A stretch of DNA of 64,000 nt, from assembly GCA_964016885.1 (NCBI GenBank), contig OZ024741.1, positions 177,630,001-177,694,000 of the forward strand. The letters run 5' to 3'. The notes beneath the pieces were generated by a model. The model saw only the letters and a program-made list of their open reading frames with translations, did not search any database and had not been told where the DNA came from. This stretch comes from Eledone cirrhosa (Eukaryota). The position numbers were made by a program, and so were the translations under genes. Positions 2,709-53,260 of the stretch are shown one piece after another. The first letter of the stretch is position 1, and every line of letters begins with the position of its first letter.

Positions 2709-3177
2709 CATGGAACTCATTTATCCATCTTTTGATCTTATATATTATATATATAAATATATATATAAAAATTAACGTGTGTTTGTTTGTTTGTTTGTAT
2801 GTATGTCCAAGAAGGAAGGGGAATAACTCTTTATTTACTACGTGTATATATATATATATATATAAAATATTGAAAAACAATGAACAATTAAACAAATAAC
2901 ATTGTCTTCATATTAATCTATTGTACTTAAATTTGCTGTCCATTGGTCTGACCTAATTATCTTTCTCTACTGTAACCACCATACCATCCTTTTCCACAAT
3001 TGTTTTACTGTTTTCTTATTCTACACTGATGATAGAGGACTGAAGGAGGTAGGTTTGCATTTATCTCAGTATAATTTGTAAAATATAGTATATATGTATG
3101 TGTATGTATATATGTGTATATGTATATATATATATATGTATATGTGTATATATGTATATGTATATATATTTTTTTTT

Positions 3178-5507
3178 ATGAAGATGCATAAATCAATATT
3201 ATCAACGTTAGTATCAGGTGACACAAGTGAACCTAAACATTTCTTGGCAAACATACGCAAGTACAATTCATGTTTCCAAATGACATTGTTCGGTGCAACA
3301 AATATCGTGCGCGAGAATTACATGCCAACATTCAAAGTGCAAGGGCAAATTTATCATCGTGCTGGATCACTACCACCACTGCCGGACGCAGATCACAAAT
3401 TTCTTCAAATGTATTTCATGGGAAACACTGATGACCAAATAGATCAACGTTGCAAATTCAATAGGGGAACTAAACGAGAAATTGTTACTGCATTACAAAC
3501 TTTATTCAATCAACACAACAAATTAATTCGATTGTTCAGAGCTGCCCTTGAACAAATGCCAAGTGATGACTACACAATTGTAGTTAGAGCAGACAAAACA
3601 CCTGTTGGCCAACATCAAAGACAGTACAATGCACCAACAATTGATGAAGTGGCGATCGTTATTGTAGGTGAAAAATTTAACTCGCGCGATATAATTCTTC
3701 CCCGCGGAAATGGTGATGTTCAGCGAGTCTCAGAAACGCATCGGTCATACGATGGTTTGCAATATCAGATTTTATTTTGGCAAGGAGAAGATGGATATCA
3801 TTTCAACATCAAACTGAGAAATCCACAAACAGATAAGGAAACGAATAAGAAAGTCAGTGCCATGAATTATTATTCATATAGATTAATGATTCGTGAAAAC
3901 GGTGAAAATCATATTTTGAAATGTCGACAATTGTTCCATCAATACATTGTCGATATGTATGCAAAAATCGAAACCGAACGACTCCTCTACATTCGATTGA
4001 ATCAAACCAATCTACGTTCAGAAGAGTACATTCATTTACGTGATGCCATTGTTAATGATGGCAATATGAATCCTAATGATTTGGGGAAAATGGTCATACT
4101 GCCGGCTACATTTACAGGGAGCCCACGGCACATGCATGAATACGCACAATATTGCACTGGCAATCGCATCATCTGGGATTGCGGCAACTCTTTTGGATGG
4201 TGGCCGAACTGCACATTCAGCACTGAAATTGCCATTGAATATGCAAATCACTGAGACACCAACATACAATATCACCAAAAATTCTGGTATAGGTAAAGTA
4301 TTCCAATCATGTCAAATCATTATATGGGACGAATGTACTATGGCGCACAAAAAATCATTGGAAGCGCTTAATAACAAACTAAAAGATTTGAAAGGAAATG
4401 AACAGCTCTTCGGTGGCACACTCATTTTATTGTCTGGTGATTTTCGACAAACTCTACCAGTTATACCGCGATCAACACCCGCTCATGAGCTTAATGCATG
4501 TCTCAAATCATCAGTTTTATGGCGACACGTACAGAAATTAACTTTAAAAACCAATATGCATGTACAACTACAAAATGATGCATCCGCTGAACGTTTCACA
4601 ACACAATTGCTGGATATTGGGAATGGGAAAATGGTAATCGATGAATCCACAAAATGTATGACATTGCCAACAAACTTCTGTAGAATCACAGCAACCAGAG
4701 ACGAACTGATTCACAAAGTTTTCCCAAATATCGCGCAGCATTACAAAAATGTCAATGCCATTAATTTCAGCATTCAAAACAAAATACCAGGCGAAGCGAC
4801 AACGTATAAGTCCATCGATACTGTAATGAATCAAGACGAAATTATCAATTATCCAACTGAATTCTTGAATTCACTTGATTTGCCAGGCATACCACCGCAC
4901 ATTTTAACATTGAAAATTGGCGTGCCTATCATCCTTCTCCGAAACATCAATCAACCACAACTTTACAACGGTACCAGGCTTTCAGTGAAAAGATGATGAA
5001 CAATATCATCGAAGCTACAATTTTAAATGGAAAATTAAAAGGAGAAGATGTACTGATGCCACGCATCCCAATGATTCCGACAGATACGCCATTCGAATTC
5101 AAACGTTTGCAGTTTCCGGTGCGACTCGCCTTTGCAATGACTATCAACAAAGCACAAGGACAATCGCTACAAGTGTGTGGACTAAATTTAGAAAATCCAT
5201 GCTTCTCACATGGACAGCTGTATGTGGCTTGCTCACGCGTCGGTAAACCTTCTGATTTATTCGTGTACGCACCAGAAGGAAAAAGAAAAAAAATTGTGTA
5301 TCCAAAAGCACTTCAGTAAAATAAATTAAATGTTCTTATAACGAGTTTTCTTTAAATTCATCAGTCATTCAGTCATTTAAAGATAAATGTTAAGATCTAA
5401 AAAATAGAAACTAAATTAGAGAAGTTTTTAAATAACGATTAAAATTTTAATATTATTGTTTTCTAAATAAGCTTTTTAACACCGAGCGAAGCCGGGTAGC
5501 TTCGCTA

Positions 5508-5782: not shown

Positions 5783-8700
5783 TTACCGTGCTCCTTTTGT
5801 AGAGCATCTCACCTTTTTTTGCCATTATGTTGGAGAACCAGCCGTTACCCATGTCTCTCAAGTGTATCCCCTTACCCAGCAGAAAAACCTACCTCAAACT
5901 GCTTATAGACGCTACTAACTGGTTTATACGGAGAGTCAGATGGAAGGCCTACCACCTGGATAAGAACACCCGTAACCTTCCTAAACCGAAGGAGAGGTAT
6001 GGCTTCAAAACAAACCGAAACCCACCGCACAACACCTTACTGGACTGCTTTGAAGAGGACCTGCTGAAAATGATCAAAAACGTTAAGTTCAGAAAGAAAC
6101 ACCAATCCAGCAATCCATTCTTAACATCGCTTGATACACTAATAACTAAGATCAAAAATGACCCGCACCTCTTCGTCACCTCCGACAAAACCAAAAAGCT
6201 GTACAAGATGGACGCGAGTAAGTATAAACAATTCATCTGTAAGGAACTACACAAAGAGTACAAAAATACACCTAAATGACATAAATAGAGTAGGGAAGGA
6301 TAGAGTCGCCAGCTTAGAAATAGAAAAGTACACTAACCCGTACATCCCTCTGACGCCTAGATTCTCTCTTAAGGATCACACATGTAACTTTAATGAAAGC
6401 CCCTCTATTAGACTAATATACCCCTCTACATCTGATATAGGTAAGTTTAGCAAAGTGATCCTCGAGAGAGTACTACTGGAGCTTAATAGAAAGGCTAAGG
6501 TCTGCCTCTGGGTCAACATCGACCAGGCCATAAATTGGTTCACAGAGTTGCCGGATAAAGCGACACTGAAATTCATCCAGTTTGACATAGATAGTTACTA
6601 CGCCTCTATCTCCCTCATACTCTTAAATAAGGCACTCATCTTAGCTACATCTAACACTAGCCTCACTTAAAAAGAAATAGACATAGTTCTAGCGGCGCGT
6701 AGAACCATTATCCAGTTCGAAGGCTCCCACTGGACCAGTACCAACCGTCCTGATAACATCGATGGCACTATGGGGTCCAGTGACTCAGCGCAAGCAACTG
6801 ACCTGGTCGGGGTATACTTCCTACATAAGCTTAGGGACGAGATACCGGCCCTACACGGAGGTGTATATAGGGACGACGCCCTGTTTACCGTCAGGAACCA
6901 TAGCCCCCGTAGGATAGAGAACCTTAACAAACATATACACATGTTCTTCAAGTCATACGGCCTATCTGTATCTATGGACCTCAACCACAAGTTTGTCAAC
7001 GTCCTGGACGTGACACTGGAGTTGAATACGGGCTTATACAAGCCATACCATAAGCCTAGAGAGGGCCTCACTTATATTAATTATGCATCCAACCACCCTA
7101 AGCAGACTCTCAATTCCATAGTCTATAGTATCTCACATAGAATCTCGCGGCTATCCGCCAATGAGGATATCTTCAACCAAGCGGTAGATTACTACAATCG
7201 GGCCCTGATAAGCGCCCGCTTTAACCGAGGAATTTCCTACATCCCTAACGCTAGCTCTAGAAACCACCCCACTCATAAAACTAATGTTATAGTAAGCCAT
7301 ACCTATAACCGATCACGTGGCGACCTCGTTGAAGTCGGATATAATAGAATAGATAATCGCACTAAAAATCACGTGCCCGGCGACAGTGACCACTGTAGAT
7401 TACTCGAACTATTCCCCTATTACAAAACCAACAAAGGCGACGGCCTACTACCAACGCCTTCCAACCAACATCTTCCTGTACATAAACATGGAAGAGGGAA
7501 GAAGAGTGCACCCGAGCATAAAGTGAAAGGGGCACCTAACGGGCTACAGCGCATTAACACACATAAGAGTGGTCACCTAGATGGAAGCACCCGAAGCAAA
7601 CGTACAAGGACACGTAATCGCCACCGTAACGTCCTATGGTTCCCACCTGCTCTCGGAGTGATGCCTCCAACGTACCCCGGATGTTTTTCGAAGTCTTAGA
7701 GAAGAGCTTCCCGCCCAACCATTGGTATAGAAAAATTCTTAATAGGAACAATATAAAAATATCCTTCTCTACTACTCCTAACCTAGCAGACATCATAGGA
7801 ACAACGAACCACAGTAAGATCACCAAGACACAGCACCTCGACACAGACGCACCTACACCTGACAATAACTATATCGGCCTTAACAACTCCCTAGCAGCAT
7901 CCAATGGTGCTGGCAACGGCCTCCGCTGACGCAGCCAGCATAACCGCGAAATGATTGGGGAACATGCAGGACATGACGTGCGGAATAACAATCGCACCAC
8001 CCCGCGTGCTGTGGGTTGTAATGGTGCTAAACGACAACTGCGGGACCGTAGGTAACAACGTAGGCAGCAACAATGATAGCCTTACCGTGAGAAATAGATG
8101 GAACCGCGTCAGAAATTGCAACTGCCGAGACAGAGGACGCTGCCCTCTTAGAGGATACTGCTTGACTGATAGGGTTATATATAGATGCACTGTAACTAGC
8201 CACAATAACGTTAAATATTATATAGGGGCTACCTCCGGCCCGTTCAAAATTAGGTTTCGAACACATCTCCACTCTTTCACAAATAAACAACTAATACACT
8301 CCACTTCGCTCGCGGACTATATCACATCACTAAAGGACTTAAACATCAGCTTCTCCACGCACTGGGATATTGTCGGCTGGGCTGCACCGTACAACTTCAA
8401 GAGGAAATGCGATATTTGCCTCATGGAGCTCTACCACATCATAACAGCACCCCACGAGCTCATCAACAGCAGAGCTGAAACAGCGATAAATTGTACACAT
8501 CGCTTTAAAATATCCTTCTTCAGATGGGTTAAGGATGAGGAGTGAAACCGAGCACCGTATCTCCCTGCAACAAGTCTTAACACCCTGGCGGCAGGCGCTG
8601 CACAATAACACCCAAGAAAATAACCTTCCATACCAGACCCAGCCTCAAACGACACAGACAAACAGTTGCAGTTAACAAATGTCTCAAAATAAGCGTTGGT

Positions 8701-14351: not shown

Positions 14352-15872
14352 TCATATTATTCCAGTTCCTGGAAATATATGATTTGCAGATTTTTCACCC
14401 AGTTGTTGGGCGTCCATTCTATTTAGCTTGTTGCTATACTGTTTCATAATATTTCTAAGTTTAGATCTAGCTATACTAAATTGTGCTTCTGTCTGTTCAT
14501 CGACATGCGACAGCAATTGCGTGCGTTTCTTAAAAGCTAAAGTCGTGGTGTGGACTCGTCGTAGGTCGAAGGACACATCGGAAGGATTATAACAAGTAGA
14601 GTTCCAGGCTGCTGCTTTATGTGTACTATTGCTATTGTTATTGTTAGTTGTGTTGTTTCTATTTCTATTTCCCCCAACAGCTTCATGTTTGTTTCTATGT
14701 CTCTCATTATTACTTCTGTCTCTTTTCTCTGGCTCATTGTTATTATCTACTCTATTTTGGGTGTCTGTGTGTTCGTCCTGGTTATTTCCTCTGTAAGTAT
14801 CGATAGTCTCCCTTCTCCCTTCTCCTTTCAATCCTATTACCTTCCCTTATTGCTGTGTTACTGTCATTAACTGTTTTCCGTGTCTGTGTGTTTGTTAAGA
14901 TTGTGGTGGTGGTAAGAGGCATAGCATGTGTGTGTGTGTGTTGCTGTTGTTGGTGTTGATGTGTGTTGTTGTTGTTGTCTCCGTGTATGTTATTATTATT
15001 GTGTGTGCTGTTATTGTTGTGTGTGTCTGCGTGTCTGTTGTTGTTTCTAAGTATGTTATTATTGTTGATGTGTGTGTTGTTGTTATCGTTGTTTGTGTCT
15101 GTGTGTCTGTTATTGGGATGTGTGTTGTATGTGTGGGTGCGTATGTTGTTACTTTTGTTTTTGTTTTTGTTTTTGAGGCTCCAACGTAATTGAGTAAATG
15201 ATTTTTCAATTTCTGACAAGCATTTTATCATATTTACCTTATTATATGTGTCATTTTTAGGTGGTAGCTTTAATATTGATAATTCATCCGAGTCGAGTGT
15301 ATTGTTGCCGTATATATTTGTCTTGTTGTTGTTGAATTCATCTGTTAATGAGATGTCGGCCATATTTATAACGTCAATTTTGTCGGGATATCTATCGATA
15401 TTCTCTAAAGTATCTTGATTTAGTTTTAACTGTTTGAGCCACTTTAGTTTCTTGTTAAAGTGCTTGTCCCATTCTTGAACAATGTAATTTTCCTCAAGAC
15501 ATATACAGTTTATAAATATTAATTTTTCTCGTGGTGTGCTGATCTTAGTTAATTCTTGTATTAGGTTACGCTTAAGTTTTTCTTGATGACTTAATTCTCT
15601 GTAAATCTTCTTTTTTATGTTTAGAATTAGTGTTCGTTTTAGCCTATCTGCTTGCTTTTTGGTGAGTTGTAATTTTCTTGCGTCGGTGTTGATGGTGTTG
15701 GTGTAAACTCGTGACGAGGCACAATCTTTTATGAAGTGTAGTTGTCGAGATGTTATTGTATTTTGTAGACAACAGAACATGGCGGTTTTCATAATCTTGT
15801 TAGCCAGGCTAAAGCTTACGATAATGCGTAGTTCTGAATTTGTTTAGCGAGATTCTTTATCTGAAAACGCGT
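14352..15872 (-). mobile_element. Penelope-like element lineage B, N-terminal fragment
   Basis: [13 protein letters not shown] matches the ORF start at 35567-35650. EIEKSFTQLRW, Asn/Thr-rich tract and DEQTEAQFSIARSK match the 20707-22478 element. Confidence 0.75.
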
Positions 15873-17603
<1,731 letters not shown>

Positions 17604-18177
17604 TGGTGGCTGCCAACTCGTTTTCGAGTACGGCCACTACTTTAAATCCATGTAGGAGAACCCCTACCAATGCGCTGAACGAGTGTGACTTTTTAGTCCA
17701 GCCAGCGACTTGAAAACTCTGGTACAAACACCATACTTGTGACAATTATTGACACATAGTGTTGGGCACATGGTACCATGTGACGACAAGTGCAGAGAGA
17801 TCTCCAGATATAAAGCAATGCCTGTGCCGTGAAGCTTTTATAGTGAGCAAAGGCACTGTACAAAGCCAGTCCCACTCTTTTAACCAAGATGATATTTACC
17901 AAAAAGAAGAACAAGTCAACATCATTGGATACCATCAGGGTTGCAGGTGTTATATCAGAGTTTTCCTTCTCCTAGAATTCTGCCTTGACAAAGGCTAAGG
18001 GGTCATCTCTCCCGGTGATTTTGGATAGCCATTGACTCTTAAGAGCTCCTTTGCCCTTTGACAGGTTTTGTTTTTAGTCCTGCAGATGTCCAAAGTCACC
18101 CACCTCACCAAGAAACCTTGGTGGGGTTGCCAGTTTAGTCGCCAACGACCCGACCATGAGACAGGTTGTACTGGGAT
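17604..18177 (+). mobile_element. Non-coding interspersed repeat resembling an RTE-clade LINE 5' region
   Basis: Near-identical to 31111-31720 with a shared 5' start (tggtggctgccaactcg). The ttttccttctcctaga..caaaggctaa motif is recalled from RTE 5' regions and not verified by search. Confidence 0.45.
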
Positions 18178-18249
18178 ACATATATATACATACATACATA
18201 CATATATACATACATACATATATATATACATACATATATACATACATAT

Positions 18250-18320
<71 letters not shown>

Positions 18321-18361
18321 CATACATACATATATATATACATACATATATATATATACAT

Positions 18362-19660
18362 AAATGTAAGTATGCATGTATACGTACATACATATATGTA
18401 TACAGACGTACAGTAGCATGCACATATGTATATATATATACATATATATATACATATGCATACAGGTACACATACATATATGCACGTATCAGTTTAGCGG
18501 CGCTTATTATAACGTCGCTTTGTTCGTTTGTAAACAAACTGAACAGCCTGAATTTATGCCATATGGTGTTAAGGCAACCGCGTCACCTTTTTGTTCAACA
18601 CTGACACAGGAACGATGTACTAGTTTCAAGCTTGTCAGCTATCATCAGCACCGTTTACCCATCTGCCAGATAGTTGAACGTTCGAAAGTATATACTTTCC
18701 TTATGAAAATTAACGGCTGAGCAGCCTAATTTGCATATTGAGTGAGTTAAATCGGTCAGGCATACCGAAAACGATAAATTGAAACAAAATGAAAACGAAA
18801 TTTCATTTCTCACTCTTAGTATGGCACTTACTTAAATGTAAGTATCCATGTATACGTACATACATATATGTATATAGACGTACAGTAGCATGCACATATG
18901 TATATATATATATACATATATATATACATATGCATACAGGTACACATACATATATGCACGTATCAGTTTAGCGGCGCTTATTATAACGTCGCTTTGTTCG
19001 TCTGTAAACAAACTGAACAGCCTGAATTCATGCCATACGGTGTTAAGGCAACCACGTCAACTTTTTGTTCAACACTGACACAGGAACGATTTACTAGTTT
19101 CAAGCTTGTTAGCTATCATCAGCACCATTTACCCATCTGCCAGATAGTTGAACGTTCGAAAGTATATACTTTCCTTATGAAAATTAACGGCTGAGCAGCC
19201 TAATTTGCATATTGAGTGAGTTAAATCGGTCAGGCATACCGAAAACGATAAATTGAAACAAAATGAAAACGAAATTTCATTTCTCACTCTTAGTATGGCA
19301 CTTACTTAAATGTAAGTATGCATGTATACGTACATACATATATGTATACAGACGTACAGTAGCATGCACATATGTATATATATATACATATATATATATA
19401 CATATGCATACAGGTACACATACATATATGCACGTATCAGTTTAGCGGCGCTTATTATAACGTCGCTTTGTTCGTTTGTAAACAAACTGAACAGCCTGAA
19501 TTTATGCCATACGGTGTTAAGGCAACCACGTCACCTTTTTGTTCAACACTGACACAGGAACGATATACTAGTTTCAAGCTTGTTAGCTATCATCACCACC
19601 GTTTACCCATCTGCCAGGTAGTTGAACGTTCGAAAGTATATACTTTCCTTATGAAAATTA
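18362..19660 (-). mobile_element. Tandem array (~2.7 units) of a 474-nt hammerhead-bearing unit (retrozyme-like)
   Basis: HHRs at 18611-18655, 19085-19129 and 19559-19603 (third core mutated): aacggtg-CTGATGA-tagct-gaca-agctt-GAAA-ctag-TA-catcgtt. Another copy at 44956-45470. Confidence 0.88.
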
Positions 19661-22600
19661 ATGTTGTCTATGTTACCGTCATGTTGTTGTCTAGCATGTT
19701 CGTATAGTACTGACCCGTTTTTTCGTCCTTTTAGTTCCCCCCAGTGTTGGTCTATCCTTTCACCTATGCTACGAGCTGTCTCACCTATGTATGTTGTTGT
19801 CATGTTTCTGCAAGTACCCTCTGTACATGTTATGCTATAGACTACGTTTCTAGTTTTACAGTTTATCCGGGGGTTCACCTTACATATGATACCTTTCCTA
19901 TTGGTACAGTGGGTTTTCTTAAAAGGGTAGGTTTTGCTGATCAGGGATTTTATGGTGGTTCCTGGCTTTTCTACCACCTTTATTTTTAAGTGGGTCTTTC
20001 TCAGGGCCTTTCTACACTGGTTAGCTAATTTCCCTCCAGGGGTGGCGTCCACAAACATGACACTCTGATATCTCTGGTTGTCGTACCATGATGTGGCCTC
20101 CCTATCTTATGTCTAGCCCTATCTAAGCTATTCCATGATTTGCTCCTGTATAGTGGGCAAATTCCTTTCATGTCCAGTTCTATGAGGGTCTTATACTTTT
20201 CCATGGCTCCTTCGTATACTCTGACATTGTCTCTTTGGTTGTAGCCAGAGAACTGCATGCGGTGGATGAAGTGTTGGATGTGTCCTTCCATTTCTGTTGG
20301 GTCGCACATGCTGGACACATTCTTCATCACTCGTACCAAATCTGCGATCAGAATATTAAACTTAGCACTACTGGACATTGCTGAGTTTTTGAGTATCAGG
20401 TATTTGGAGGCCATGGGTTTAGCATAGTGTGAGTGGAGAATTTGGGCTCTCTCGTCTATAGTGTTAATCCAGAGTTCTGTGTCTAATACAGGTTGTCTAT
20501 TGTTAGGGTGTTTGGAAGGGAAGTCTATAGTTACAGTTATACTCTGGTGTATGGAAATAGCTATCTGCTGGATGCTTTCCATCGTGCTACGTTCTAAATC
20601 AAACTTGTTAGTGCTTTCTAGTGGGGGTGTTCTTATAACTATATTGATATCGTCTACATAACGAGAGTACATGATGAGGTCTATGGAGCTTTCATTAAGG
20701 AGATCTTTAAGTCTCCTTTCCCATCATACCATGAAGAGGTTGGCAACCAGCTATGCTGACGCCGATGGCTGCTCCCTCATTTTGGGTGTAGATTTTCTCA
20801 TTGAACTTAAATATGTGGCCCTTTAGGCTAGTTTTGATACTAGCCCCTATTGCATGTGCGACCATTTTTCTTACCTGATCAGTGTTTTGGGGGGTCCGTA
20901 TAGCTTTGGTCCATCCAATCCACCTTCCTATGGGAGTCTTTTTAGCCATTGAGGTTATGGTGGGGGGTCTACCTCTTATAGGTCTACTAGGGCAGAAACA
21001 TCTAAGGTCATGGCTGTCTAGGTAGTCAGTGTCGCAGGTAAGTCTAAGTAGGAGGCCCAGTTCGTCTGTGTCGACGTCGCAGAACTCCACCTCACTCTCA
21101 ATGATCATCTCCACACATCTTTTCACAGCAAAATCAATGTTAATGGATGGGTACAGTGACACCACATCCATGCTGCCTATTATGCAGTTGGATAGGCTCC
21201 TGTTTTTGTTGCACTCACTGATTCTGCTGAGGAGGTCCTCTGTACTTTCACATACATCTGGGGACATCTTGATTATGGGGCGTATAACTATTGAGAAGAA
21301 GTAGGAGATCCTGTAGTTGCTAGCTATATTAGCTCCGCATACGGGTCTTGTTGGTGGTCCTGTTGTCGGGTCGTCGACTCTCTTGTGGTCTTTGCGGAGC
21401 CCATACAAGGGTGGTATGCCATTGTTAGACGCCTGGAAGTTGTTGGCAGTGCGTCTGCTTGGCTTTAGGATGTCAGTCCACATCATCATGTGAGCGTTGA
21501 GGATTTTTTCTCTCCCATCGTGTGTTAGTTGTGCAACTTCGCTCGTGTTGGTGATGTGGGGTTGCATTGCCTCGATGTAGTTCGGCATGCTATCTATTGA
21601 CATCCTACCAGACTTATCTGTGGGTAGACACACTACCTCACCATCCCTTGTGCGCTGCTTGAGGCTAACCAAGCCTTCTACAGGTTTTATCCCAAGTTGT
21701 TGGGCCTCTGGCCTGCTCTGTCTCATAGTGTACCTGTCTACTGCTTGTCTAATCTTATTTCTAGCTATGGTGAACTGTGCCTCCGTCTCGTCATCTATTT
21801 GCTGTGGTATGCAAACTCTTTTATTAAAGGGTAACCTCGTAGGATAGATATTACCCATCTTATATGTTTTGTCAGCTGGGTTGAAAAATAGTTTCTCTAA
21901 GGGTTGTCGTTATTTCTATCGTCATAGTTGTGTGTGTTGCTATTATTGTTATCATGGTGGTTGTTGTTGTTTCTATCATTAGCATTAATATTATTATTGT
22001 TATGATTGCTAGATGTATTGTTGTTTACTTCACCGTTATTGTTGTTGTTGTTACTGCTATTTCTACCATTGTGGTTGTTACTATTATTATGTTTCTTGTT
22101 TTTGTTGATGTTGCTACATGTACTATTTCCATTATTACCACTGTGGTTATTGTTGTTGTTGTTCGTATTGTTACCGTTATTACTACTGTGGTTACTGTTG
22201 CTGTGTCTGTGGTTAACGTTTCTATTATTATTATTATTGTTGTTGTTGTTGTTCCGTCTATCGCTAGTATTATTGCCATTATCACTATTTCTCACTTTCC
22301 TGCCATTGTTATGGTTATGGCTGTTATTTCTATACCCAGAGTTATTGTTTATATTACTACTACCGTTATTATTGTTGTTGTTGTTTACCTTTGCATTCCA
22401 ACGTATTTTTGTGAAACACTTTTCCAGCTCCGTTTTATTCCATAAGAAAACCCACTGTACCAATAGGAAATGTATCATATGTAAGGTGAACCCCCGGATA
22501 AACTGTAAAACTAGAAACGTAGTCTATAGCATAACATGTACAGAGGGTACTTGCAGAAACATGACAACAACATACATAGGTGAGACAGCTCGTAGCATAG

Positions 22601-23377
22601 GTGAAAGGATAGACCAACACTGGGGGGAACTAAAAGGACGAAAAAACGGGTCAGTACTATACGAACATGCTAGACAACAACATGACGGTAACATAGACAA
22701 CATAGAAATTAGAATAATATCTAAACATAGGAATGACCCAGCAGATAGGCAAGTCAGAGAGGCCAGTGAAATAGAAATTAGAAGCTAAACAGAAAGAATG
22801 AGTGGAACAACAACACCCAAACAAACAACACTGACCTAAGAGAAGTATAAATAAGTAAATAAAATTAAATAAAATAAGATAAATAAATACATACACAAGC
22901 ACAATAACAACAAGCACATAAAAACACACTAGTCACCCAGCAGACACAACACTATACACACTAGTCACACATCACACATAACACTATACACACACGCAAA
23001 CGCATGCGCAAAAAAGACAAAATAAAATAAGATAGACAAACAAGCAAATAAATAAATAAATATATAGACAGACTGAACATAAAAAAAATGGCGTAGACAT
23101 ACAACACAACAGGAGGAACAATGAATATAACACCACTGACGATGTTGCAGATGTGCAACGAAAGATTTATGTAAATTATGTAAACTATATATATGTGTTT
23201 GTGTCTATATTGTATCTGTATTATTTTTGACCGTCGGTCAGTCAATGGCAACATTGAGTACCGAGTAAGTTAGATCGCAGATATAAAAGACAGCGAGAAG
23301 CGAAAACCAACCAAACAGTGAGTGTGTTCTGTTATTAATTCTGGCAATATTACGCAAATATGACCCTCCCCAAATAT

Positions 23378-23382
<5 letters not shown>
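19661..23382 (-). mobile_element. Penelope-like element lineage B (YVDD RT, GIY-YIG), rearranged: minus arm 19661-22442, plus arm 22443-23382 with 3' pLTR
   Basis: ORFs 20707..21858, 20025..20672, 19603..20058 (LYGLRKDHK, TRPVC, SMDVVSLYP, YSRYVDD, VVYSITC..YIGETARS). GIY-YIG segment is repeated inverted at 22444-22700. Confidence 0.9.
23131..23172 (+). ncRNA. Minimal hammerhead in lineage-B pLTR
   Basis: ca-CTGACGA-tgttgca-gatg-tgcaac-GAAA-gatt-TA-tg. Stem I weak. Homologue at 58065-58106; core deleted in the copy near 61170. Confidence 0.6.
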
Positions 23383-23412
<30 letters not shown>

Positions 23413-23568
23413 TATATACATACATATATATATATATATACATACATATGTATATATTTATATATACATACATATATATATATATGTATATATATACATA
23501 CATATATATATATATATACATACATACATATATATATATATTATATATATATATACATATATATATAT

Positions 23569-24856
<1,288 letters not shown>

Positions 24857-27270: not shown

Positions 27271-28498
<1,228 letters not shown>

Positions 28499-28544: not shown

Positions 28545-30707
28545 AGGCATATAGAAAGAGGCAAACAGTCACTAAAATCTTATTCCCAGAGATTGGAAAA
28601 TCCTTATGAGACGTAGAACTAAACTTTCAAACCAGTTGAATAGTCAACAAAACAAAAACAAGAAGGAATCCTATTTGAAACGTGCACTACTTGACACCGA
28701 GATTGCACTCAAACTTTCACAACATGAGAATGAGAGGGCAAAGAAAGAGAACAGGGCCATAGAAAACATTAAAACAAACCCTAAGGCCTTCTTTAAAATT
28801 GCAAAAGAAACTGCCTCAGTACACTGCAAGATTGGGCCACTCTTCCACACGGACGGTTCATTAACCGAAAATCCCCAAGAGATATGTGAAATACTGAACG
28901 AACAGTACAAATGTGTCTTCACATGTCAACTGAGGCACATGCAAATAACGAAGCCAGAGGAGTTCTTTGATGCCACAACACTACATCAAGAAATGGCAAC
29001 CATCAACCACATAGACATAACGGAGGAGGATGTGGTGTACGCCATTGATGAAATTAGAACAGACTCGGCTGCTGGACCTGATGGATTCCCAGCAGTTCTC
29101 CTAAAAATATGTAAGTGGGCCTTAGCAACTCCACTGAAGATGCTCTTCAGAAGTTCCTTGGCTAGCGGTGTACTACCCGGGGAGCTGAAAGAAGGTACAA
29201 TATGCCCTATCCATAAAGGAGGTAGTAGAGCGGAGGCCAAGAACTATAGGCCAGTCTCCCTGACGTCGCATATCAGTAAGGTCATGGAGTGAGTCGTCAG
29301 AAAGAAACTAATCACTTTCCTCGAAGAAAATGACCGCCTGACTAGCACGCAACATGGCTTCCGCCCAGGAAGAAACTGCCTTACACAGCTGCTACATCAC
29401 TACGACTGGGTACTGAGACAACTACTAGACAGCTCACATGTGGACGTGATATATCTTGACTTTGCGAAGGCCTTTGACAAGGTCGACCACGGAATGATAT
29501 GTCACAAACTACACGGACTCGGCATAACTGGAAAAGTAGGTGAGTGGCTGCATGGCTTCCCAAGCGACAGAAGCCAGGCAGTCGCAGAAAATGGGGCCCT
29601 CTCGAGGGAAACACCGATAACAAGTGGGGTGCCCCAGGGGACAGTCCTGGGACCACTACTGTTTTTGGTGGCTCTCTCGGACATTCCCTCTGTGGTGCAT
29701 GCAACAACATCCCTCACTAGCTATGCTGATGACACTAAGGTAGCACAGGCAATCAAAAACCCGGCAGACGCTGCCCTTTTATAGCAGGATCTGGATGCCA
29801 TATACAGATGGGCGGAAGAAAACAACATGCAGTTTAATGCTGGCAAATTCTAAGCCCTACAATACAAACCTGCAAACACAAATATAGTGGAACACAGCTA
29901 CACAGGACCAGGAGGGACCGATATCCCCGTGTCAAAATAGATACGAGACCTGGGCATAGACATGAGCGATGATGCATCTTTTTCTTCACACATCATGAAG
30001 GTGGCGACAACATGTAGACGATTCGCTGGCTAGATCTTGAGGACTTTCCTTACAAGAGACCGAGACACCATGTTGACACTGTGGAGGACTTTTGTCCTAA
30101 GCCGCCTGGACTACTGCTCCCAGCTGTGGTCACCCCAGAGTGTCAAACTAACCACGGAGCTTGAGGCAATCCAGCGGAGCTACACCAAGAGGATTGCCAA
30201 GATGAGGGAGACAAGCTACTGGGAGAGGCTAAAGAAACTGAACCTCTACTCCTTGGAGCGAAGACGGGAGAGATACGCAGTGATCTACATGTGGAAAATC
30301 CTGGAGGGACTAGCACCAAGCTTTGGCATTGGGAGCTGGACCAACCGTCGAACAGGACGTCACTGTGTGGTGCCAAAGGTCCCGTCTTCCACATCTAGAA
30401 TAAGGAGAAGGTATTGCAATAACCTGGGATTCAAGGGCCCTCAACTCTTCAACAGGCTGCCGAGGCATCTGAGAGACTTGCATGACGTGGAGGTGGATGT
30501 CTTTAAGAAACATCTCGACACCTTGTTATCCAGGATCCCGGATGAGCCCACAGCAAGACACGAGGGAAACCTAAGCGCAGCAGCAACAAACTCCCTCCTA
30601 CACCAGTGGCCAACCAATACAGGCTGGAGATAAAATGTGTAGCAACAAGGGCGGTGGCCCAGCATAGCCTCAGCCGGATGGCTGAAACAGGTAAAAGAGT
30701 AAAAGAG

Positions 30708-32051: not shown

Positions 32052-32091
<40 letters not shown>

Positions 32092-32278
32092 CGTATATAT
32101 ATATATATATATATATTGTTATACTTTGGGAGGGTCATGTTGCCAATAAGAAACACACGCACCAGTAGCTTTCACTTCAAATTATTATATATTTATAAAA
32201 TTATAAATTTACAAATTTACAAACATATAAATTTCTGGTTGGTTGGTTGGTTCCACAACCAGATAGTTGTTTATATAT

Positions 32279-32323
32279 AGTCATAGTCCTTTCGTCACAC
32301 ACTCTGTGACCTCTTCAGTGACT
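32279..32323 (-). ncRNA. Minimal type I hammerhead, left pLTR
   Basis: Reverse complement of 35382-35426. Confidence 0.78.
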
Positions 32324-35300
32324 GGGGATTCCTTTCTTTGTTTCTGTGCCTTTCCTTTCTTCTATCCTACGCCATTTTGTTTCTGTGTGTGTGTTGTGTG
32401 CTCAGTTTGCGCATGCGCCACATCCGGGTGTCTGTGTGTGTTTGTGTTCATTTATCTATTTGTTTATTTATTCATTTATTTATTGTTGGTTGGTTGTTTG
32501 TTCTATGTGTGTGTGTGTTTTCATTTTGTCCTGTGTGTGTTTTCATTTTGTCCTTAATTGTAAGTTGTTTGTTCTATGTGTGTGTGTGTTTTCATTTTGT
32601 CCTGTGTGTGTTTTCATTTTGTCCTTAATTGTAAGTTGTGATGTTGCTGTTCCACTCATATTTTCTATTTAATTTTGGTTGTAATTCTTTTATGCTTACT
32701 GCCTCTGTAATTTGCCTAAACATTGCATCTTTTCTGTGTGTGGATTCTATTTTTATTTCTATGTTCTCTAATCTACCCCTGTGTTCTATCTTAGCATGTT
32801 GGTAGAGTACAGATGATTCTTTATTATCTTGGAGGTCTCGCCAGTGTTCATTTATTCGTTCCCCTATACTACGAGCTGTCTCACCTATGTACACTATATT
32901 TTTGATTCTACATTGTCCTTCAGTACATCTTATGCTATACACTACATTTCTAGTTTTACAGTTAATACGGGGGCTTATTTTACAGGTTATACATTTCTTA
33001 CCTATACATGAGGGTCTTTGAAAAGGGTATGTCTTGCTAATAAGTGTGTTTACGGAGGTACCTGGTCTTTCTACTATCTTAATATTGAGTTTATGTTTAT
33101 TTAGGGCCCTTCTAAATTTGTAGGCTAGTTCGCCTCTAGGGTTGTATTGATGAACATTACACTCTGGTATGTATTGCTATCATACCATGAGTTTATTCTA
33201 TTGGCCTTGTTCCTAGTTCTTTCTATTCTATTCCAAAATTTGCTCCTATACAATGGGCAGGTCCCATTTATGTCATTATTTACCATTTTTTCCCATTTGG
33301 TTCTGGCTCCTTTATACACTCTGATTCTATCTCTCTGATTGTAGCCAGAGAACTGCATACGGTGGATGAAGTGTTGTATGTGTCTCTCTAGTTCTTCGGG
33401 GTTGCACATGCGGGACACGTTTCTCATCACCCGTACCAAATCCGCAATTAGTATGTTGATTTTGGTATGGTCCGAAATGGCCGAGTTTCGGTGGATCAGA
33501 TGTTTGGAAGTCATGGGTTTGGCATAATGGGAATGGAGGATTTGTTTTTGGTTGTTAATGGTATCTAACCAGAGCTCTGTGTCTAGTACAGGTAATCGAT
33601 GGTTGGGGTGTCTACTTGGGTAGTCTATAGTAACTCTAATGTTCTGGTGGATGGAGTTTGCTATTTGCTGGATGCTTTCCATTGTATTTTTCTCTAGTTC
33701 CTGGCTGTTCTTTAGTGGGGGTGTCTTAACTACGATGTTTATATCATCTACGTAGCGGGAGTACATTATCAGGGTTAAGCTGTCTTGTAATTGTTCTTTA
33801 AGTTTTTGTTTAAGTCTACTGTCCCACCATACCATGAATAAGTTAGCTATGTCGCCTGCAATGCTAACACCAATGGCTGCTCCTTCCTCTTGGGCATATG
33901 TTTTACCATTAAATTTGAACATATGTTCCTTAAGGGTTAATTTTATGCTGGCCCCTACCGCATGTGCAATCATTTTCTTCAGTTCATCGTGGTTTTCGGG
34001 TGTCCGTATGGCTCTGGTCCACCCGTTCCATCTATCTGTGTGGGTTTTCTTGGCCATTGAGGTAATGGTAGATAAGAAATGTATAACCTGTAAAATAAGC
34101 CCCCATATTAACTGTAAAACTAGAAATGTAGTGTATAGCATAAGATGTACTGAAGGACAATGTAGAAACAAAAATGGGAGATGGTCTGCCTCTTGCTGGT
34201 CTTGTAGGGCACAGGTTGCTAAGGTCATAAGTGTCTAGGTAACTATTACTATGGGTAAGCTTAAGTAGAAGTCCCAGCTCACTGGTATCAATCCCACGGA
34301 ACTCAACCTTGCTCTCGCTGATCATTTCTACGCATTTATCCACAGCAAAATCCACGTCAATAGATGGATACAGGGACACAACATCCATACTGCCTATTAT
34401 GCAGTTTGTTAGGTCCCCAGATCGGTTACCCGCGCCGATTCTGCTGAGGAGCAAATAGGAGCAAATTTTGGAATAGAATAGAAATAACTAGGAACAAGGC
34501 CAATAGAATAAACTCATGGTATGATAGCAATAATTACCAGAGTGTAATGTTCATCAATACAACCCCTAGAGGCGAACTAGCCTACAAATTTAGAAGGGCT
34601 CTAAATAAACATAAACTCAATATTAAGATAGTAGAAAGACCAGGTACCTCCGTAAAAACACTTATTAGCAAGACATACCCGTTCCAAAGACCCTCATGTA
34701 TAGATAAGAAATGTATAACCTGTAAAATAAGCCCCCATATTAACTGTAAAACTAGAAATGTAGTGTATAGCATAAGATGTACTGAAGGACAATGTAGAAA
34801 CAAAAATATAGTGTACATAGGTGAGACAGCTCGTAGTGTAGGGGAACGAATAAATGAACACTGGCGAGACCATCAAGATAATAAAGAATCATCTGTACTC
34901 TACCAACATGCTAAGATAGAACACAGGGGTAGATTCGAGAACATAGAAATAAAAATAGAATCCACACACAGAAAAGATGCAATGTTTAGGCAAATTACAG
35001 AGGCAGTAAGCATAAAAGAATTACAACCAAAATTAAATAGAAAATATGAGTGGAACAGCAACATCACAACTTACAATTAAGGACAACATGAAAACACACA
35101 CAGGACAAAATGAAAACACACACACACATAGAACAAACAACTTACAATTAAGGACAAAATGAAAACACACACAGGACAAAATGAAAACACACACACACAT
35201 AGAACAAACAACCAACCAACAATAAATAAATGAATAAATAAACAAATAGATAAATGAACACAAACACACACAGACACCCGGATGTGGCGCATGCGCAAAC

Positions 35301-43578: not shown

Positions 43579-43624
<46 letters not shown>

Positions 43625-43626
<2 letters not shown>

Positions 43627-44921: not shown

Positions 44922-45470
<549 letters not shown>

Positions 45471-48181
45471 GGGGGCGGGTTGTCGATAAATAAATCAGAA
45501 TAGACTTAGAAATAAAAATAGAATTAAAAATAAAAATAAAAATAAAAATAATGTTAAAATTAAAATTAAAGTTAATAATAATAAAAAAAAAATATAAAGA
45601 TAATAATAGAATAACGTAAGTGGCATAAAGTGTGTAATCTTATGTATACTAACAAGGTGTAATAGTGAAGACATAGATATGGTACAGTGGCCAAATGATT
45701 ATGAGAGCTAGAATGAAGAGTCATCAAAAACCAATGATAACATTAGTGTTGGCAAACAAAAGAACCCAAACAAAAAACTAAGTAATGGAATATATCTGCT
45801 AATGGGTACGATTTGTACTACTAGAACATTTGGGCTTATAATAAAAGTAAGAATTAGAAATGGCATGGGGGCAAGAAGAGAATATCTCAGACTTTCTATT
45901 CAGTAGGGTACGCTAGAAAAAATAATAGAGTGTGTCTCAAGTATACAGAGATTACAAAACTTACTATGTGCAGAATGGTGGTTAGATCGTGCTACTAAAC
46001 TCCAGTTAAGGCTATATGGTATATAAGCTCCCTTAAGATCCCAGATATAATGCGCTAGAGAGGTAGAATTCTTAAACCTAACATGTTTGAAGTTAGAGAT
46101 ATGAGAGTTAAACCTAGTCTTAAAAGTGTTTGAAGTAGATCCTATATACGTTCTTTTAGAGGAATTAGTTATAACCTCGCAAGCATAGACGATGTTCTTA
46201 GAAAGGCAGTTACCGTTTAGAGGGCAGTTAGCACTCACTCTACAATTGCCCTTCCGGGTGTTATTGGTTGGCTCGAGTGGTGATGTATTGCATGTAGGAC
46301 CTCTATTAGATAAGGACTGTTCTGGTGGTAAAGCATTGTCCGATGCATACAGACTAGTAGTATGTAGAGAGGAGAATCCATCCCTAATTTTCCTATTATT
46401 AGTGCTAGCTAAATGAGAACTAATATTAGGGGTGGTAGAGAATGAGAGTTTAATAACATTTTTATTAAAAATACCATGGTATTTGTGAGAAGGGGGGACA
46501 TTTTTCTCCAAGATAGTGAAGAAAGACCTAGGGATATGAGTTGATACATCCTGATTATATGGCGGGTTGAAATAAGTATTCAATCGCCTTCTATTTTCAT
46601 TTTTATTCTTATCGACCCTACCTCTATCAAATGTCCCACCGTCGAGACTAGGGTTACTATCGGGAATAGTTGAAGCCACATTCATAGAATCAGCCATAAT
46701 TTCGTTATGCCTATTATAGTTTCTACCTCTAGTAGATCCGCTGTTGTCCAGAATCCCTACAAGAGGATAAAGGCCAATGATAGGATCAGTAGGAGCAACA
46801 TTACTAGAATAAGATCCAGCCAAACCAACACCAATGCGTGAGCGCACAGGGGGCTCGACTTGTCTCTTAGAGATATTATATTTGTTATTACGAGTCCGGT
46901 GGGATAACTTATGGGTGGGTTCAAATACTGCTATATAAGTTCTACGGTTACTATGTTTGCTACTCCCATTCATGGCCATGCTATGTGATATAATGTTATT
47001 ATTATTAAGAGCAAGCGGAGACTTTCTAAAGTTACTATTATTATAATTTATTTTACTAGAGTGACCTGAATTTGCTAGGGCGTTATTGTAGTACTCCGCA
47101 TGTTCATTAAAAAGTTCCTATGTCCTTAGCTCACTCATCCACACATGTCTGTCTACTAACCTTGTAATTATATGTATTTATATATTTTATGCCAATTTTA
47201 AAATATATTACATTATGATATAGATCCTTATTACTTACCGTTTATTATATATAACATTATGATATTTAAACTTTATATATCATGTAAGATGTCTGGATTT
47301 TTTAATATTTTAATATTGTAATATGTAACATCATGATATTTAGACTTTACATATCATGTTAGATGTATGTATATTTTTTTCTGTAACATCATATTTTTTC
47401 TGTAACATCATAATTTTACCCTGTACCATTATAGTTTTTTTGAGTATTATATTATATGATTTATATTTCCTCATTTATTATGTAACCCAGTATGAATCAT
47501 TTTATACATATTGTTTATGGTAATTGTTAATATAATGTTAACATTTTATCATTGAATTTCATTATGGCATCTATATTGTTTCTGTAAATTAACCGGGATT
47601 ATCTATTCTACATTATTATATTGTATTGAATTATAAAATTTTGTTGTTTATTATTTGTTATAAGTGTTTCTTGTAATTATATCATATTATTGCCTCATGT
47701 ATATTGGGTAGATGTATTAGTATTATGTTCACTATTACCATGCTTATTTTTAATATTCAAACTTCTAATAGGGCTTAATTTCTGTGTAATAGAACATAGA
47801 TATGTGTATTGTTGTATGTGTGTGTGTGTGTGTGTGTGTGTGCGCACATATTTACATGTATATATTGTGCCTTTTGATTTTTAATTTGGAATTTTAATGT
47901 TGGTATAAATATATTATCATTATAATGTATTATATTGTGTTATATATAATTCCTGCTCTATATAACCAAATCTGTTTAGATTTAGGTTGGTGGCTTTGGA
48001 CTATATTTATAATATGGTTGTTAATGTTATCTACATCCTTAGTTATTATAATTTTATTATTTTTATCTTTATTTTCATTTTTATTATCGTATATCTTTGC
48101 AAGACATTAGTATATGTACACTCCATATTCTTCAGAGTTTCTGGCTTGTATCTGCCGATATTACCTCTTGTTGTTTTGATT

Positions 48182-48219
48182 GCCCTGATGAGTCCTTAAT
48201 AGGACGAAACATTGTCGGC
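48182..48219 (+). ncRNA. Minimal type I hammerhead, 5' pLTR
   Basis: gcc-CTGATGA-gtcct-taat-aggac-GAAA-cattg-TC-ggc, followed by AATAAA. Confidence 0.88.
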
Positions 48220-51200
48220 TAATAAAAACTTTTGATGTATTAAAGGATTCTTTGTTTTACTCTCTTAATTTTTTGGCTCTGTTTAACTGCATTGAGCTAT
48301 ACCTTTTACTGTCATTTCTATAATACGAAGAGGGTGTTTGACTCAAACACGCTCCAGTATTCTAATCCTTGTAACTGCTCCCGATAGGTTGAGCTTACTC
48401 ACATATATACTGGCATTTTGGCCTCTATATATTTTTATCTGACAGTATGCTGACAAAGAGTTACTTGCCTTTATCTCTGAAAAATATTCCCACCCCTCTA
48501 AGAATACTTACCCAAAACTACTGATAGCTAGTGTTAACTCCTTTGTAAAAAGGATTAGATGGCGTGCGTTTCACTACGATAGTAATAAGAATAGGAAGGA
48601 CCCTAGGAATAGAACAAATTTTAATAGCTACGGCTTCAAAACGTATAAGAGCCCACCACACAACATACTATTAGACAGTTTCGAAGGTGACTTACTCTCT
48701 CTGGTCAAAAATGTTAGGTTTAGGCCAAATGATACACATAGAAACAATAGTAATTTTGATAAATTCCAGTCCAGACTTAAAAATAGTGTTAAGGGTTTCG
48801 GTGAGAATAAGTCCATTCTGGTCCCGGCAGATAAGACTAAGAATCTATACCGCGATTTTATTTATAAAGAGTTATATAGAAACTATAAAAAAACTACGCT
48901 TGAGAATTTGAACCACATCAATAGTGAGGGCCTTAGAATAGTCTCTGACCTCGGACACGATAAGTATACCCAGCTATATTACCCTTGAGAACCGAGATTC
49001 ACACTTAAAGACCATAAGATTGATTATATTAGTAACCCCTCAGTTAGACTTATCTGACCTTCTAAGTCGGATATAGCCATTATCAGTAAAAAAAATCCTT
49101 GACTTTATTATACCAGATGTTAGGGATAAGGTTAATTTTAACTTATGGGGGAACACTAGGGAAGTTATAGATTGGTTTTCTGGGATTAATAGACTTGAAT
49201 CTAATAAGTTTATCCAATTCGATATTGATGCCTACTACACATCAATTTCACCCATCCTCCTCAATAAAGCCTTAATGTTGGCCATGAGAGTGTCCAGCCT
49301 TACACGATCGCAGGTAGATATTATACTAGCAGCCCGTAAAACTATTATTAAATTTGATGACACTTTTGGGACCCGTAAAAACACGCCCAATAATTTCGAC
49401 GTTACAATGGGTTCGAGTGATTCGGCCCAGGTTACTGATCTTGTTGGGTTGTTCCTCCCTAATGAACTATACGCTACCTTCCCGCACCTTGTAGGCGGAC
49501 TATATCGTGATGATGCATTGTTTGTAATTAACTCTAGTACCAACAATGTAGAACGTAATAAGAAGAAGCTTTATAAGTTTTTTAATAGCTACAACCTTTC
49601 AATCACGATAGATAGAAATGATAGAGCGGTTAACTTTTTAGATGTGACTTTGGACTTGGCCACTAATAGTTTTAAACCCTTCCATAAGCCTAATGAAATT
49701 CTTTCTTATGTTAGCCCCAATTCTAACCACCATAAGTCTGTGATAAACTCTATAATTAAGGGCGTTTCTAATAGGATTTCCACACTATCTAAGGACATAG
49801 GAACTTTTAAACAACACGCGGAGTACTACAATAACGCCCTAACAAATTCAGGTCACTCTAGTAAAATAAATTATAATAATAGTAACTTTAGAAAGTCTCC
49901 GCTTACTCTTAATAATAATAACATTATATCACATAATGGGAGTAGCAAACATAGTAACCGTAGAACTTATATAGGAGTATCTGAACCCACCCATAAGATA
50001 TCCCACCGGACTCGTAATAACAAATATAATACCTCTATGAGACAAGTGGAGCCCCCTGTGCGCTCACGCATTGGTGTTGGTTTGACTGGATCTTATTCTA
50101 GTAATGTTGCTCCTACTGATCCTATCATTGGCCTTAATCCTCTTGTAGGGATTCTGGACAACAACGGATCTACTAGAGGTAGAAACTATAATAGGCATAA
50201 CGAAATTATGGCTGATTCTATGAATGTGGCTTCAACTATTCCCGATAGTAACCCTAGTCTCGACGGTGGGACATTTGATAGAGGTAGGGTCGATAAGAAT
50301 AAAAATAAAAATAGAAGGCGATTGAATACTTATTTCAACCCGCCATATAATCAGGATGTATCAACTAATATCCCTACGTCTTTCTTCACTATCCTGGAGA
50401 AAAATTTCCCCCCTTCTCACAAATACCATGGTATTTTTAATAAAAATGTTATTAAACTCTCATTCTCTACCACCCCTAATATTAGTTCTCATTTAGCTAG
50501 CACTAATAATAGGAACATTAGGGATGGATTCTCCTCTCTACATACTACTAGTCTGAATGCATCGGACAATGCTTTACCACCAGAACAGTCCTTATCTAAT
50601 AGAGGTCCTACGTGCAATACATCACCACTCGAGCCAACCAATAACACCCGGAAGTGCAATTGTAGAGTGAGTGCTAACTGCCCTCTAAACGGTAACTGCC
50701 TTTCTAAGAACATTGTCTATGCTTGCGAGGTTATAACTAATTCCTCTAAAAGAACGTATATAGGATCTACTTCAAACACTTTTAAGACTAGGTTTAACTC
50801 TCATATCTCTAACTTCAAACATGTTAGGTTTAAGAATTCTACCTCTCTAGCGCATTATATCTGGGATCTTAAGGGAGCTTATATACCATATAGCCTTAAC
50901 TGGAGTTTAGTAGCACGATCTAACCACCTTTCTGCACATAGTAAGTTTTGTAATCTCTGTATACTTGAGACACACTCTATTATTTTCTCTAGCGTACCCT
51001 ACTGAATAGAAAGTCTGAGATATTCTCTTCTTGCCCCCATGCCATTTCTAATTCTTACTTTTATTATTAACCCAAATGTTCTAGTAGTACAAATCGTACC
51101 CATTAGCAGATATATTCCATTACTTAGTTTTTTGTTTGGGTTCTTTTGTTTGCCAACACTAATGTTATCATTGGTTTTTGATGACTCTTCATTCTAGCTC

Positions 51201-53026
51201 TCATAATCATTTGGCCACTATACCATATCTATGTCTTCACTATTACACCTTGTTAGTATACATAAGATTACACACTTTATGCCACTTACGTTATTCTATT
51301 ATTATCTTTATATTTTGTTTTTATTAATATTAACTTTAATTTTAATTTTAATATTATTTTTATTTTTATTTTTATTTTTAATTCTATTTTTATTTCTAAG
51401 TCTATTCTGATTTATCTATCGACAACCCCCCCCCCTGTCCCCCACCCCTCCCTCTCCCCCCACATGCACACATAAACTTATTGTCAACCCCTCCAGATTG
51501 AACATGATTATATTTAACCCCCCCCCCTCTTTTATGCTCCGTTCTATTATTTATTATAGTATATCGAATATATTTTATGCCACTTAGCACCCTCTATATA
51601 TTTTGTCAATTGTGTACCCATTAGCCTATCTTAACTCTACTTAAGTCAGTTTTTTAGATATCGTTGCGTATATGATAGTGTAATTTTATTTCTTTTTGTA
51701 AACATTTGTAATGATACATTAAAGTTTATATACTTTAATGACTTAAACTATAGCTAATATTATACTACCTTATCGGACGGGTTCGATATTTTTAATATTA
51801 ATTTATCAGATAGGGTTTGGGGTCATTTAAAATGATCGCTTTCCTTGGTGTTTACCTAATTTCTTAATGCACGCGAGGCCTAAATGTGTATACATTTGCT
51901 TTTGTTGTGTAATTTCCGGTTGATTGTATTTATTTGTTTTATTCTATATTCTATTTACTATTCACTGTCTGGCTTCGCTCACTCATCCCCACATGTCTGT
52001 CTACTAACCTTGTAATTATAAGTATTTATATATTTTATGCCAATTTTAAAATATATTACATTATGATATAGATCCTTATTACTTACCGTTTATTATATAT
52101 AACATTATGATATTTAAACTTTATATATCATGTAAGATGTCTGGATTTTTTAATATTTTAATATTGTAATATGTAACATTATGATATTTAGACTTTACAT
52201 ATCATGTTAGATGTCTGTATATTTTTTTCTGAAACATCATATTTTTTTCTGTAACATCATAATTTTTCCCTGTACCATTATAGTTTTTTTTAGTATTATA
52301 TTATATGATTTATATTTCCTCATTTATTATGTAACCCAGTATGAATCATTTTGTACATATTGTTTATGGTAATTGTTAATATAATGTTAACATTTTATCA
52401 TTGAATTTCATTGTGACATCTATATTGTTTCTGTAAATTAACCGGGATTATCTATTCTACTTTATTATATTGTATTGAATTATATAATTTTGTTGTTTAT
52501 TATTTGTTATAAGTGTTTCTTGTAATTATATCATATTATTGCCTAATGTATATTGGGTAGATGTATTAGTATTATTTTCACTATTACCATGCTTATTTTT
52601 AATATTCAAACTTCTAATAGGGCTTAATTTCTGTGTAATAGAACATAGATATGTGTATTGTTGTATGTGTGTGTGTGTGTGTGTGTGCGCACATATATAC
52701 ATGTATATATTGTACCTTTTGATTTTTAATTTGGAATTTTAATGTTGGTATAAATATATTATTATTATAATGTATTATATTGTGTTATATATAATTCCTG
52801 CTCTATATAACCAACTTTGTTTAGATTTAGGTTGGTGGCTTTGGACTATATTTGTAATATGGTTCTTAATGTTATCTACATCCTTAGTTATTATAATTTT
52901 ATTATTTTTATCTTTATTTTCATTTTTATTATCGTATATCTTTGCAAGACATTAGTATATGTACACTCCATATTCTTCAGAGTTTCTGGCTTGTATCTGC
53001 CGATATTACCTCTTGTTATTTTGATT

Positions 53027-53064
53027 GCCCTGATGAGTCCTTAATAGGACGAAACATTGTCGGC
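53027..53064 (+). ncRNA. Minimal type I hammerhead, 3' pLTR
   Basis: Identical to 48182-48219. Confidence 0.88.
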
Positions 53065-53211
53065 TAATAAAAACGTTTGATGTATTAAAGGATTCTTTGT
53101 TTTACTCTCTTAATTTGTTGGCTCTGTTTAACTGCATTGAGCTATACCTTTTACTGTCATTTCTATAATACGAAGAGGGTGTTTGACTCAAACACGCTCC
53201 AGTATTCTAAT

Positions 53212-53260
<49 letters not shown>

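Follow-up and report, generated by a model that had tools for sequence, protein, structure and literature searches.

A 64,000-nucleotide (nt) stretch of the Eledone cirrhosa genome (assembly GCA_964016885.1, contig OZ024741.1, positions 177,630,001 to 177,694,000; hereafter the window, in which position 1 is the first letter) holds, at 18361-23382, a retrozyme array that is fused to a head-to-head pair of arms of a Penelope-like element (PLE). The retrozyme family to which the array belongs shows the insertion signature of PLEs directly and in thousands of copies, and that PLE enzymes mobilise it is the firmest of the conclusions that we infer from the sequences. For the block itself, we regard it as an even bet that it arose in one insertion event, with a reverse transcriptase (RT) switching from retrozyme RNA to PLE RNA. 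The significance of the locus rests more on the family-wide signature and on the repetition of its layout than on the single junction. The block and its flanks are built as follows:

18176..18360, no strand: (TA)n-type microsatellite, left target flank
18361..19662, minus strand: retrozyme array, 2.75 x 474 nt; its RNA 3' end (18361) coincides with one of the two fixed ends of the family
18618..18648, minus strand: type I hammerhead core of unit 1, intact; predicted cut after 18618; short palindromic helix III
19092..19122, minus strand: type I hammerhead core of unit 2, intact, with a single change that weakens stem I
19566..19596, minus strand: hammerhead core of unit 3; C3 changed to G, predicted inactive
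19661..19662, minus strand: retrozyme/PLE junction with one shared base and no TA, at unit position 121 (the cut lies after 215)
19662..22442, minus strand: long arm of the PLE (here called PLE-B), with N-rich linker, RT, thumb and first part of GIY-YIG
22442..22443, no strand: inner head-to-head junction between the PLE-B arms, single in the genome
22443..23382, plus strand: short arm of PLE-B, with the end of GIY-YIG and the 3' untranslated region (UTR)/pseudo-long terminal repeat (pLTR), ending at the commonest 3' end of the family
23382..23770, no strand: (TA)n microsatellite, right target flank

The sequence-only reading of this stretch had described about 2.7 units of 474 nt joined in sense, without a TA spacer, to the GIY-YIG region of a PLE, and this description holds: 2.75 units meet the minus-strand GIY-YIG coding region of PLE-B, in sense, at 19661/19662 (Tandem Repeats Finder, TRF, places the array at 18357-19661 with a period of 474, 2.8 copies and 97% matches). 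Judged by motif and fold, each unit carries a type I hammerhead ribozyme, in which stem I encloses the core, stem II has 4 bp and helix III is short and palindromic, a shape that has been described as working in dimers (PMC4209133; here and below, papers are cited for those parts of them that were available). An Rfam search of the array gave no match at the gathering score. One hammerhead per unit, as had been proposed, is correct as far as the motif goes; intact cores are found in units 1 and 2 only, because unit 3 carries the C3-to-G change, which abolishes hammerhead cleavage (PMC11167929). In keeping with a non-LTR retrozyme, the array is a head-to-tail tandem repeat without long terminal repeats (LTRs) or an open reading frame (ORF), the region holding no ORF of 150 amino acids except for microsatellite read-through. 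Its 3' end lies inside the (TA)n tract at a fixed family site, 257 nt from the nearest predicted ribozyme cut, which makes a circular or multimeric RNA the likely template.

Across the genome, the retrozyme core is dispersed in many copies, with 10,660 exact matches (control, 0). Its anatomy was tabulated at 112 loci, comprising 53 that were clustered from the first 100 core matches on contig C1, 19 further loci of a young subfamily, and 40 from a decay-variant pattern (its first 40 after one locus already in the sample and one five-match cluster on C2 had been passed over). By marker words, head-to-head arms are present at 77 of these loci, and strict patterns place 71 and 20 of the 3' ends in TA at two sites that are separated by 59 nt, both far from the ribozyme cut. 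Young arrays consist of near-identical units, usually with one haplotype in both arms, as would be expected from one circular template, and some copies are identical to one another and therefore very recent. The 5' truncation points (101) scatter over the unit, which rules out a preferred switch site. An inverted pair, an optional tail and a microsatellite target have been described as the signature of PLE insertion (PMC8557442, PMC3846280), and the insertion anatomy of the retrozyme, as read from its copies, is this signature. No visible similarity points to an origin of the family from the pLTRs of these PLEs: a 60-unit retrozyme profile had no match in two PLE-B copies or the other PLEs of the window and, in three PLE-A loci, matched only an adjacent retrozyme copy; blastn, too, gave no retrozyme similarity to PLE-B. 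Among individual loci, G000:C5:19760864-19768074 (L008-L022) is a very recent insertion, a head-to-head pair of about 7 + 8 near-identical units, while L112, L121 and L191 belong to another retrozyme family, a distant relative (profile E 1e-22) that shares the palindromic helix III. At L065:2563-3121, about ten copies of a 55-nt tandem repeat lie between the arms of a retrozyme pair.

PLE-B is best represented by a natural copy (L101:5284-8814) with a 1,177-codon open frame and YVDD and GIY-YIG-type motifs, that is, with the single ORF, RT and C-terminal GIY-YIG of endonuclease-bearing (EN+) PLEs. Its translation has a CX4CxxC linker and CCHH in the endonuclease; a CX2-5CxxC linker together with the endonuclease CCHH marks Neptune and Nematis (PMC8557442), and PLE-B, assigned by motifs only, would be of one of these types. 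Upstream of the RT lies a long asparagine-rich insert, a feature that has been reported at other positions in rotifer Penelopes (PMC3846280). The protein has 180 homologues, the best being an RT-domain protein of Octopus vulgaris (68%); Pfam recognised no family on the four focal PLE fragments and gave weak GIY-YIG matches on two other PLE ORFs of the window. At 72 sampled loci, PLE-B is often found in head-to-head pairs, and 91 of 99 3' ends fall on three sites (+0, +45 and +60); the pLTR/partial tandem, the inverted 5'-truncated copy and the optional tail are likewise those of EN+ PLEs. Part of this set was chosen for a full 3' region and therefore cannot show fusions of the focal kind. Older relatives of PLE-B, 70-75% alike, inverted and rearranged, lie in the window at 32058-35212 and at about 57867-58408.

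Within the focal block, the long arm is 5'-truncated with a broken frame, the final 679 nt of the element being absent from it, and the short arm contains a hammerhead-like core at 23136 within its 3' UTR/pLTR. The arms are inverted with respect to each other and overlap by 261 nt with 1 difference. In the 3.0 Gb of the genome, the focal junction pattern and the junction between the PLE arms are each present a single time, and a chimeric-query search found no second PLE-B/retrozyme junction among 40 candidates scored out of 659. Alleles with the array but no PLE, the mark of an independent nested insertion, had been named as one outcome that would overturn the sequence-only reading; simple nesting of the retrozyme inside the PLE is ruled out, as the missing 679 nt of the long arm were not found on the other side of the array, and it is likewise ruled out for two further loci, L044 and L160.

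The three-part layout, consisting of a retrozyme, a PLE arm without its end and a second, inverted PLE arm whose end is normal, recurs elsewhere in the window:

44956..45469, minus strand: second copy of the retrozyme family, about 1.1 units, with the long 3' end
45471..47129, minus strand: minus arm of a Hydra-type PLE, last 1,784 nt missing
47125..53218, plus strand: plus arm of the Hydra-type PLE, pLTRs 47125-48373 and 51973-53218, normal end at 53218

Here, too, the retrozyme runs in sense into the arm of a PLE that differs from PLE-B, with no TA between them and 3 bases in common. The same layout is seen at L044, the only in-sense fusion to PLE coding sequence in the sample (1/112), with a third PLE family, whose arm breaks off within the endonuclease region and lacks about 1,100 nt or more. 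Both of these partners have the CxCX5C linker of Hydra type, the PLE at 45-53 kb also carries DKT, and in comparisons with each other and with PLE-B they are 26-41% alike over short stretches. The pLTRs of the PLE at 45-53 kb each contain a canonical-looking hammerhead core (48185 and 53030). As such fusions involve three PLE families of two types, and as the tested PLEs gave no match to the retrozyme profile, the fusion does not name the helper enzyme, contrary to the earlier suggestion of a physical link between passenger and helper.

The ages of the partners are compatible with joint insertion. In the focal block, the retrozyme has 13/1303 private changes (1.0%) and the PLE 20/2962 (0.7%; p=0.26, a test of low power); at 44956-53218, the retrozyme has 2/304, and the PLE arms and pLTRs show 60 differences in 2,909 aligned nt (p=0.77); at L044, the retrozyme has 2/342, and the PLE is 99% identical to its nearest copies. 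All three in-sense PLE fusions are thus age-matched. Neighbours separated from the retrozyme by TA lie within about 2% of a relative in 11 of the 31 measurable cases (49 examined), and at this baseline the chance of three age matches is 0.04-0.13. Among three-part loci with some age measure, 5 of 6 match, including L194 and L060, which involve other repeats and match by their arms (the L060 partner has no relative above 96%). In the neighbour comparison, the partner distances of L044 and L060 were lowered by targeted searches.

If the block represents a single event, a PLE enzyme would have cut both strands of the (TA)n tract, after which the right end would prime at the normal 3' start of PLE-B RNA and be copied for 940 nt, while the left end would prime at the normal start of a retrozyme RNA, circular or multimeric, with 2.75 units copied. 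Synthesis at the left end would then move to an internal site of PLE-B RNA for 2,781 nt more, and both complementary DNAs would finally be joined head to head. In favour of this course, both outer ends of the block are family-standard 3' ends in TA, and retrozyme and PLE-B both insert as head-to-head pairs. The anatomy of the block, its fixed ends, the pairing habit of both families, the recurrence of the layout and the compatible ages are established; simultaneity, the switch, the circular RNA and the acting enzyme would be the steps that the model adds to them. Of the course originally proposed, priming at TA on a circular or multimeric RNA agrees with the fixed 3' end in (TA)n away from the ribozyme cut, and the ages of retrozyme and PLE are indistinguishable; the subsequent switch is less secure, since seamless joins are not peculiar to PLE partners.

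Tabulation of the 5' neighbours, which had been suggested as a check, cuts both ways in the 112-locus sample, as it includes the age-matched fusion of the same layout at L044 and also yielded several observations that weigh against a single event. TA-free 5' joins to non-retrozyme DNA occur at 16 of the 112 loci (L035, L038, L044, L055, L058, L060, L061, L160, L194, L197, L207, L211, L213, L215, L223 and L234) and involve many repeat families, 15 of the 16 not joining PLE coding sequence; this count leaves out L039, L056, L162 and L209 (short AT spacer), L065, L068 and L210 (other DNA beside or between the retrozyme arms) and L184 (a run of N). Several of these partners are older than the retrozyme: at L160, the best relative of the partner is 91% identical (among 40 scored of 2,234) as compared to about 1% divergence for the retrozyme; in the three-part locus L223, the partner arms show 5 differences in 96 nt and the retrozyme 0-2 in 350; and the partners at L234 and L207 are clearly older. 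Young partners are not significantly enriched at TA-free joins, either among measurable loci (8/15 TA-free vs 11/31 TA-separated, p=0.34) or among all loci (8/16 vs 11/49, p=0.06). Two joins between retrozyme and PLE-B require sequential insertion or a deletion: at L090, six AT letters separate an older retrozyme from a younger PLE-B, and at L216 the two elements meet tail to tail, each without its end. Processes of this kind do produce seamless joins in this genome, and the absence of TA is therefore not diagnostic by itself. Adjacency of the two families is also common, since a young PLE-B has a retrozyme as its neighbour across TA in 3 of 53 loci. The matches at L194 and L060 may be fold-back copies of local DNA instead of RNA switches, and the focal retrozyme looks slightly older than the overlap of the PLE arms (13/1303 vs 1/522, p=0.08). 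Finally, RT jumps usually land on an RNA 3' end, whereas the proposed switch lands internally in PLE-B.

Several of these observations favour a second explanation, to which we assign a little less than an even chance: two separate insertions at one (TA)n tract, in which the spacer and the outer 679 nt of the PLE were lost, either as a target deletion at the second insertion or by later deletion in a fragile region of inverted repeats and TA. The age-mismatched seamless joins (L160, L223, L234 and L207, with L223 itself three-part), the sequential retrozyme/PLE-B joins at L090 and L216, the young PLE-B and retrozyme neighbours across TA, and the wealth of PLE coding remnants in the window all fit it. 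Microhomology-mediated deletions are common in PLE copies (PMC3846280), and the one to three shared bases at the junctions are compatible with end joining. This explanation must, however, accommodate the age match of all three in-sense PLE fusions as well as losses beyond TA of 679, about 1,100 or more, and 1,784 nt, and an order in which the retrozyme came second needs an older PLE, although the focal PLE is not older than the retrozyme. A pre-joined RNA, copied in one run without a switch after read-through of a chimeric locus or ligation of two RNAs, would account for the join on the same strand, and ribozyme cutting makes ligatable ends (PMC4209133); we nevertheless consider it improbable, because both junctions are single-copy, with no sibling or source locus, and the join lies at unit position 121, whereas a 5' end made by the ribozyme would be at 216. 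The same position rules out RNA ligation at the ribozyme cut. Least probable of all is an assembly error joining two repeats. In the contigs of 4 public runs (short-read contigs from unknown individuals, which can show presence only), each family has its normal continuation at 19661 and none of the matches listed bridges the junction, yet one shared base leaves no overlap to mis-join on, units and arms have private changes typical of one real locus, and the same layout exists at two other places.

A broader form of the single-event reading, which we hold tentatively and consider rather unlikely, is that PLE enzymes, acting at a (TA)n break, prime its ends on two RNAs simultaneously, that the ribozyme RNA, as a circle, is carried indiscriminately by enzymes of two or more PLE types (Neptune/Nematis-like and Hydra-like), and that the fusions are fossils of such single events. 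Self-priming on antisense RNA has been given as an alternative explanation of head-to-head pairs (PMC3846280). If single events are the correct reading, the fusions would show two RNAs at one break and tie the head-to-head structures of PLEs to two-end priming; if deletions made them instead, the PLE signature of the retrozyme stands and the focal junction is an accident.

In U6/L1 chimeras, the autonomous RNA is reportedly copied first, with a jump onto the 3' end of the small RNA, whereas here the passenger would come first and the landing site would be internal: the 5' partner is joined 679 nt inside PLE-B and not at its own 3' end. These template-switch chimeras are a precedent for two RNAs fused in sense in one event (PMC4476161). 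In Adineta vaga, Penelope enzymes move other sequence in trans, head-to-head structures are found and template jumps have been proposed; the cargo, unlike the retrozyme in the fusions here, lies between pLTRs (PMC3846280). Like the metazoan non-LTR retrozymes described (PMC7229834; preprint 10.64898/2026.07.22.740005), the present family is a non-coding tandem with a type I hammerhead per unit and thousands of copies. PLEs have been proposed as mobilisers of animal retrozymes (PMC7229834), and the preprint points to co-occurrence, a shared ribozyme type and pLTR similarity, with the mechanism left open. In contrast to these descriptions, the present case offers the PLE-like insertion anatomy itself together with direct fusions to PLE coding sequence, and no similarity to the pLTRs tested, as compared to 24/57 Xenopus retrozyme families that match known elements. 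RT and C-terminal GIY-YIG, a partial tandem with pLTR, (TA)n targets, an adjacent inverted 5'-truncated copy and an optional 3' tail are shared with EN+ PLEs (PMC8557442); the replacement of the 3' portion of one arm by a retrozyme array is not, and PLE-B has three 3' ends (+0, +45 and +60) instead of a single tail of 30-40 nt. With AT-rich DNA, the purified Poseidon enzyme PAc cleaves both strands and extends each of them; synthesis begins at two internal sites, which accounts for the tail, and does not depend on ribozyme cleavage (PMC11167929). This mechanism, although from a different clade, matches the outward-facing fixed ends away from the ribozyme cut; the pages consulted mention neither trans-mobilisation nor switching between RNAs. 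A literature search by titles and abstract starts, with few subscription papers, returned nothing on retrozyme-PLE fusions or head-to-head retrozyme arrays.

Some further repeats adjoin the retrozymes or share the window with them. Several short non-coding repeat families (at L038, L055, L058, L060, L061, L160 and many other loci) form head-to-head pairs in TA with fixed outer ends, like non-autonomous PLE derivatives, and one of them ends in (GAT)n; a search with the L055 partner arm gave no match. At L060:3130-3253 and L207:4859-4892, perfect fold-back palindromes of the neighbouring element stand at the 5' junction of the retrozyme. An unrelated 312-nt hammerhead array between TA tracts (27305-28374; 2.9 units, 99% alike), which has a second arm that is short and inverted, appears from its layout to be a second retrozyme family with the same head-to-head arrangement. 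A non-coding element with inverted arms at 43603-44900 has a hammerhead-like motif at 43811 and 44616 and is followed by a short palindromic element, both in TA. The window is rich in PLEs, with further coding remnants at 580-2097, 5803-8545 and 14352-15843. From their translations by eye, 3082-4996 contains what we take to be Helitron-like Rep/helicase fragments, and 28576-30633 presumably holds RT fragments of the LINE (long interspersed nuclear element) kind.

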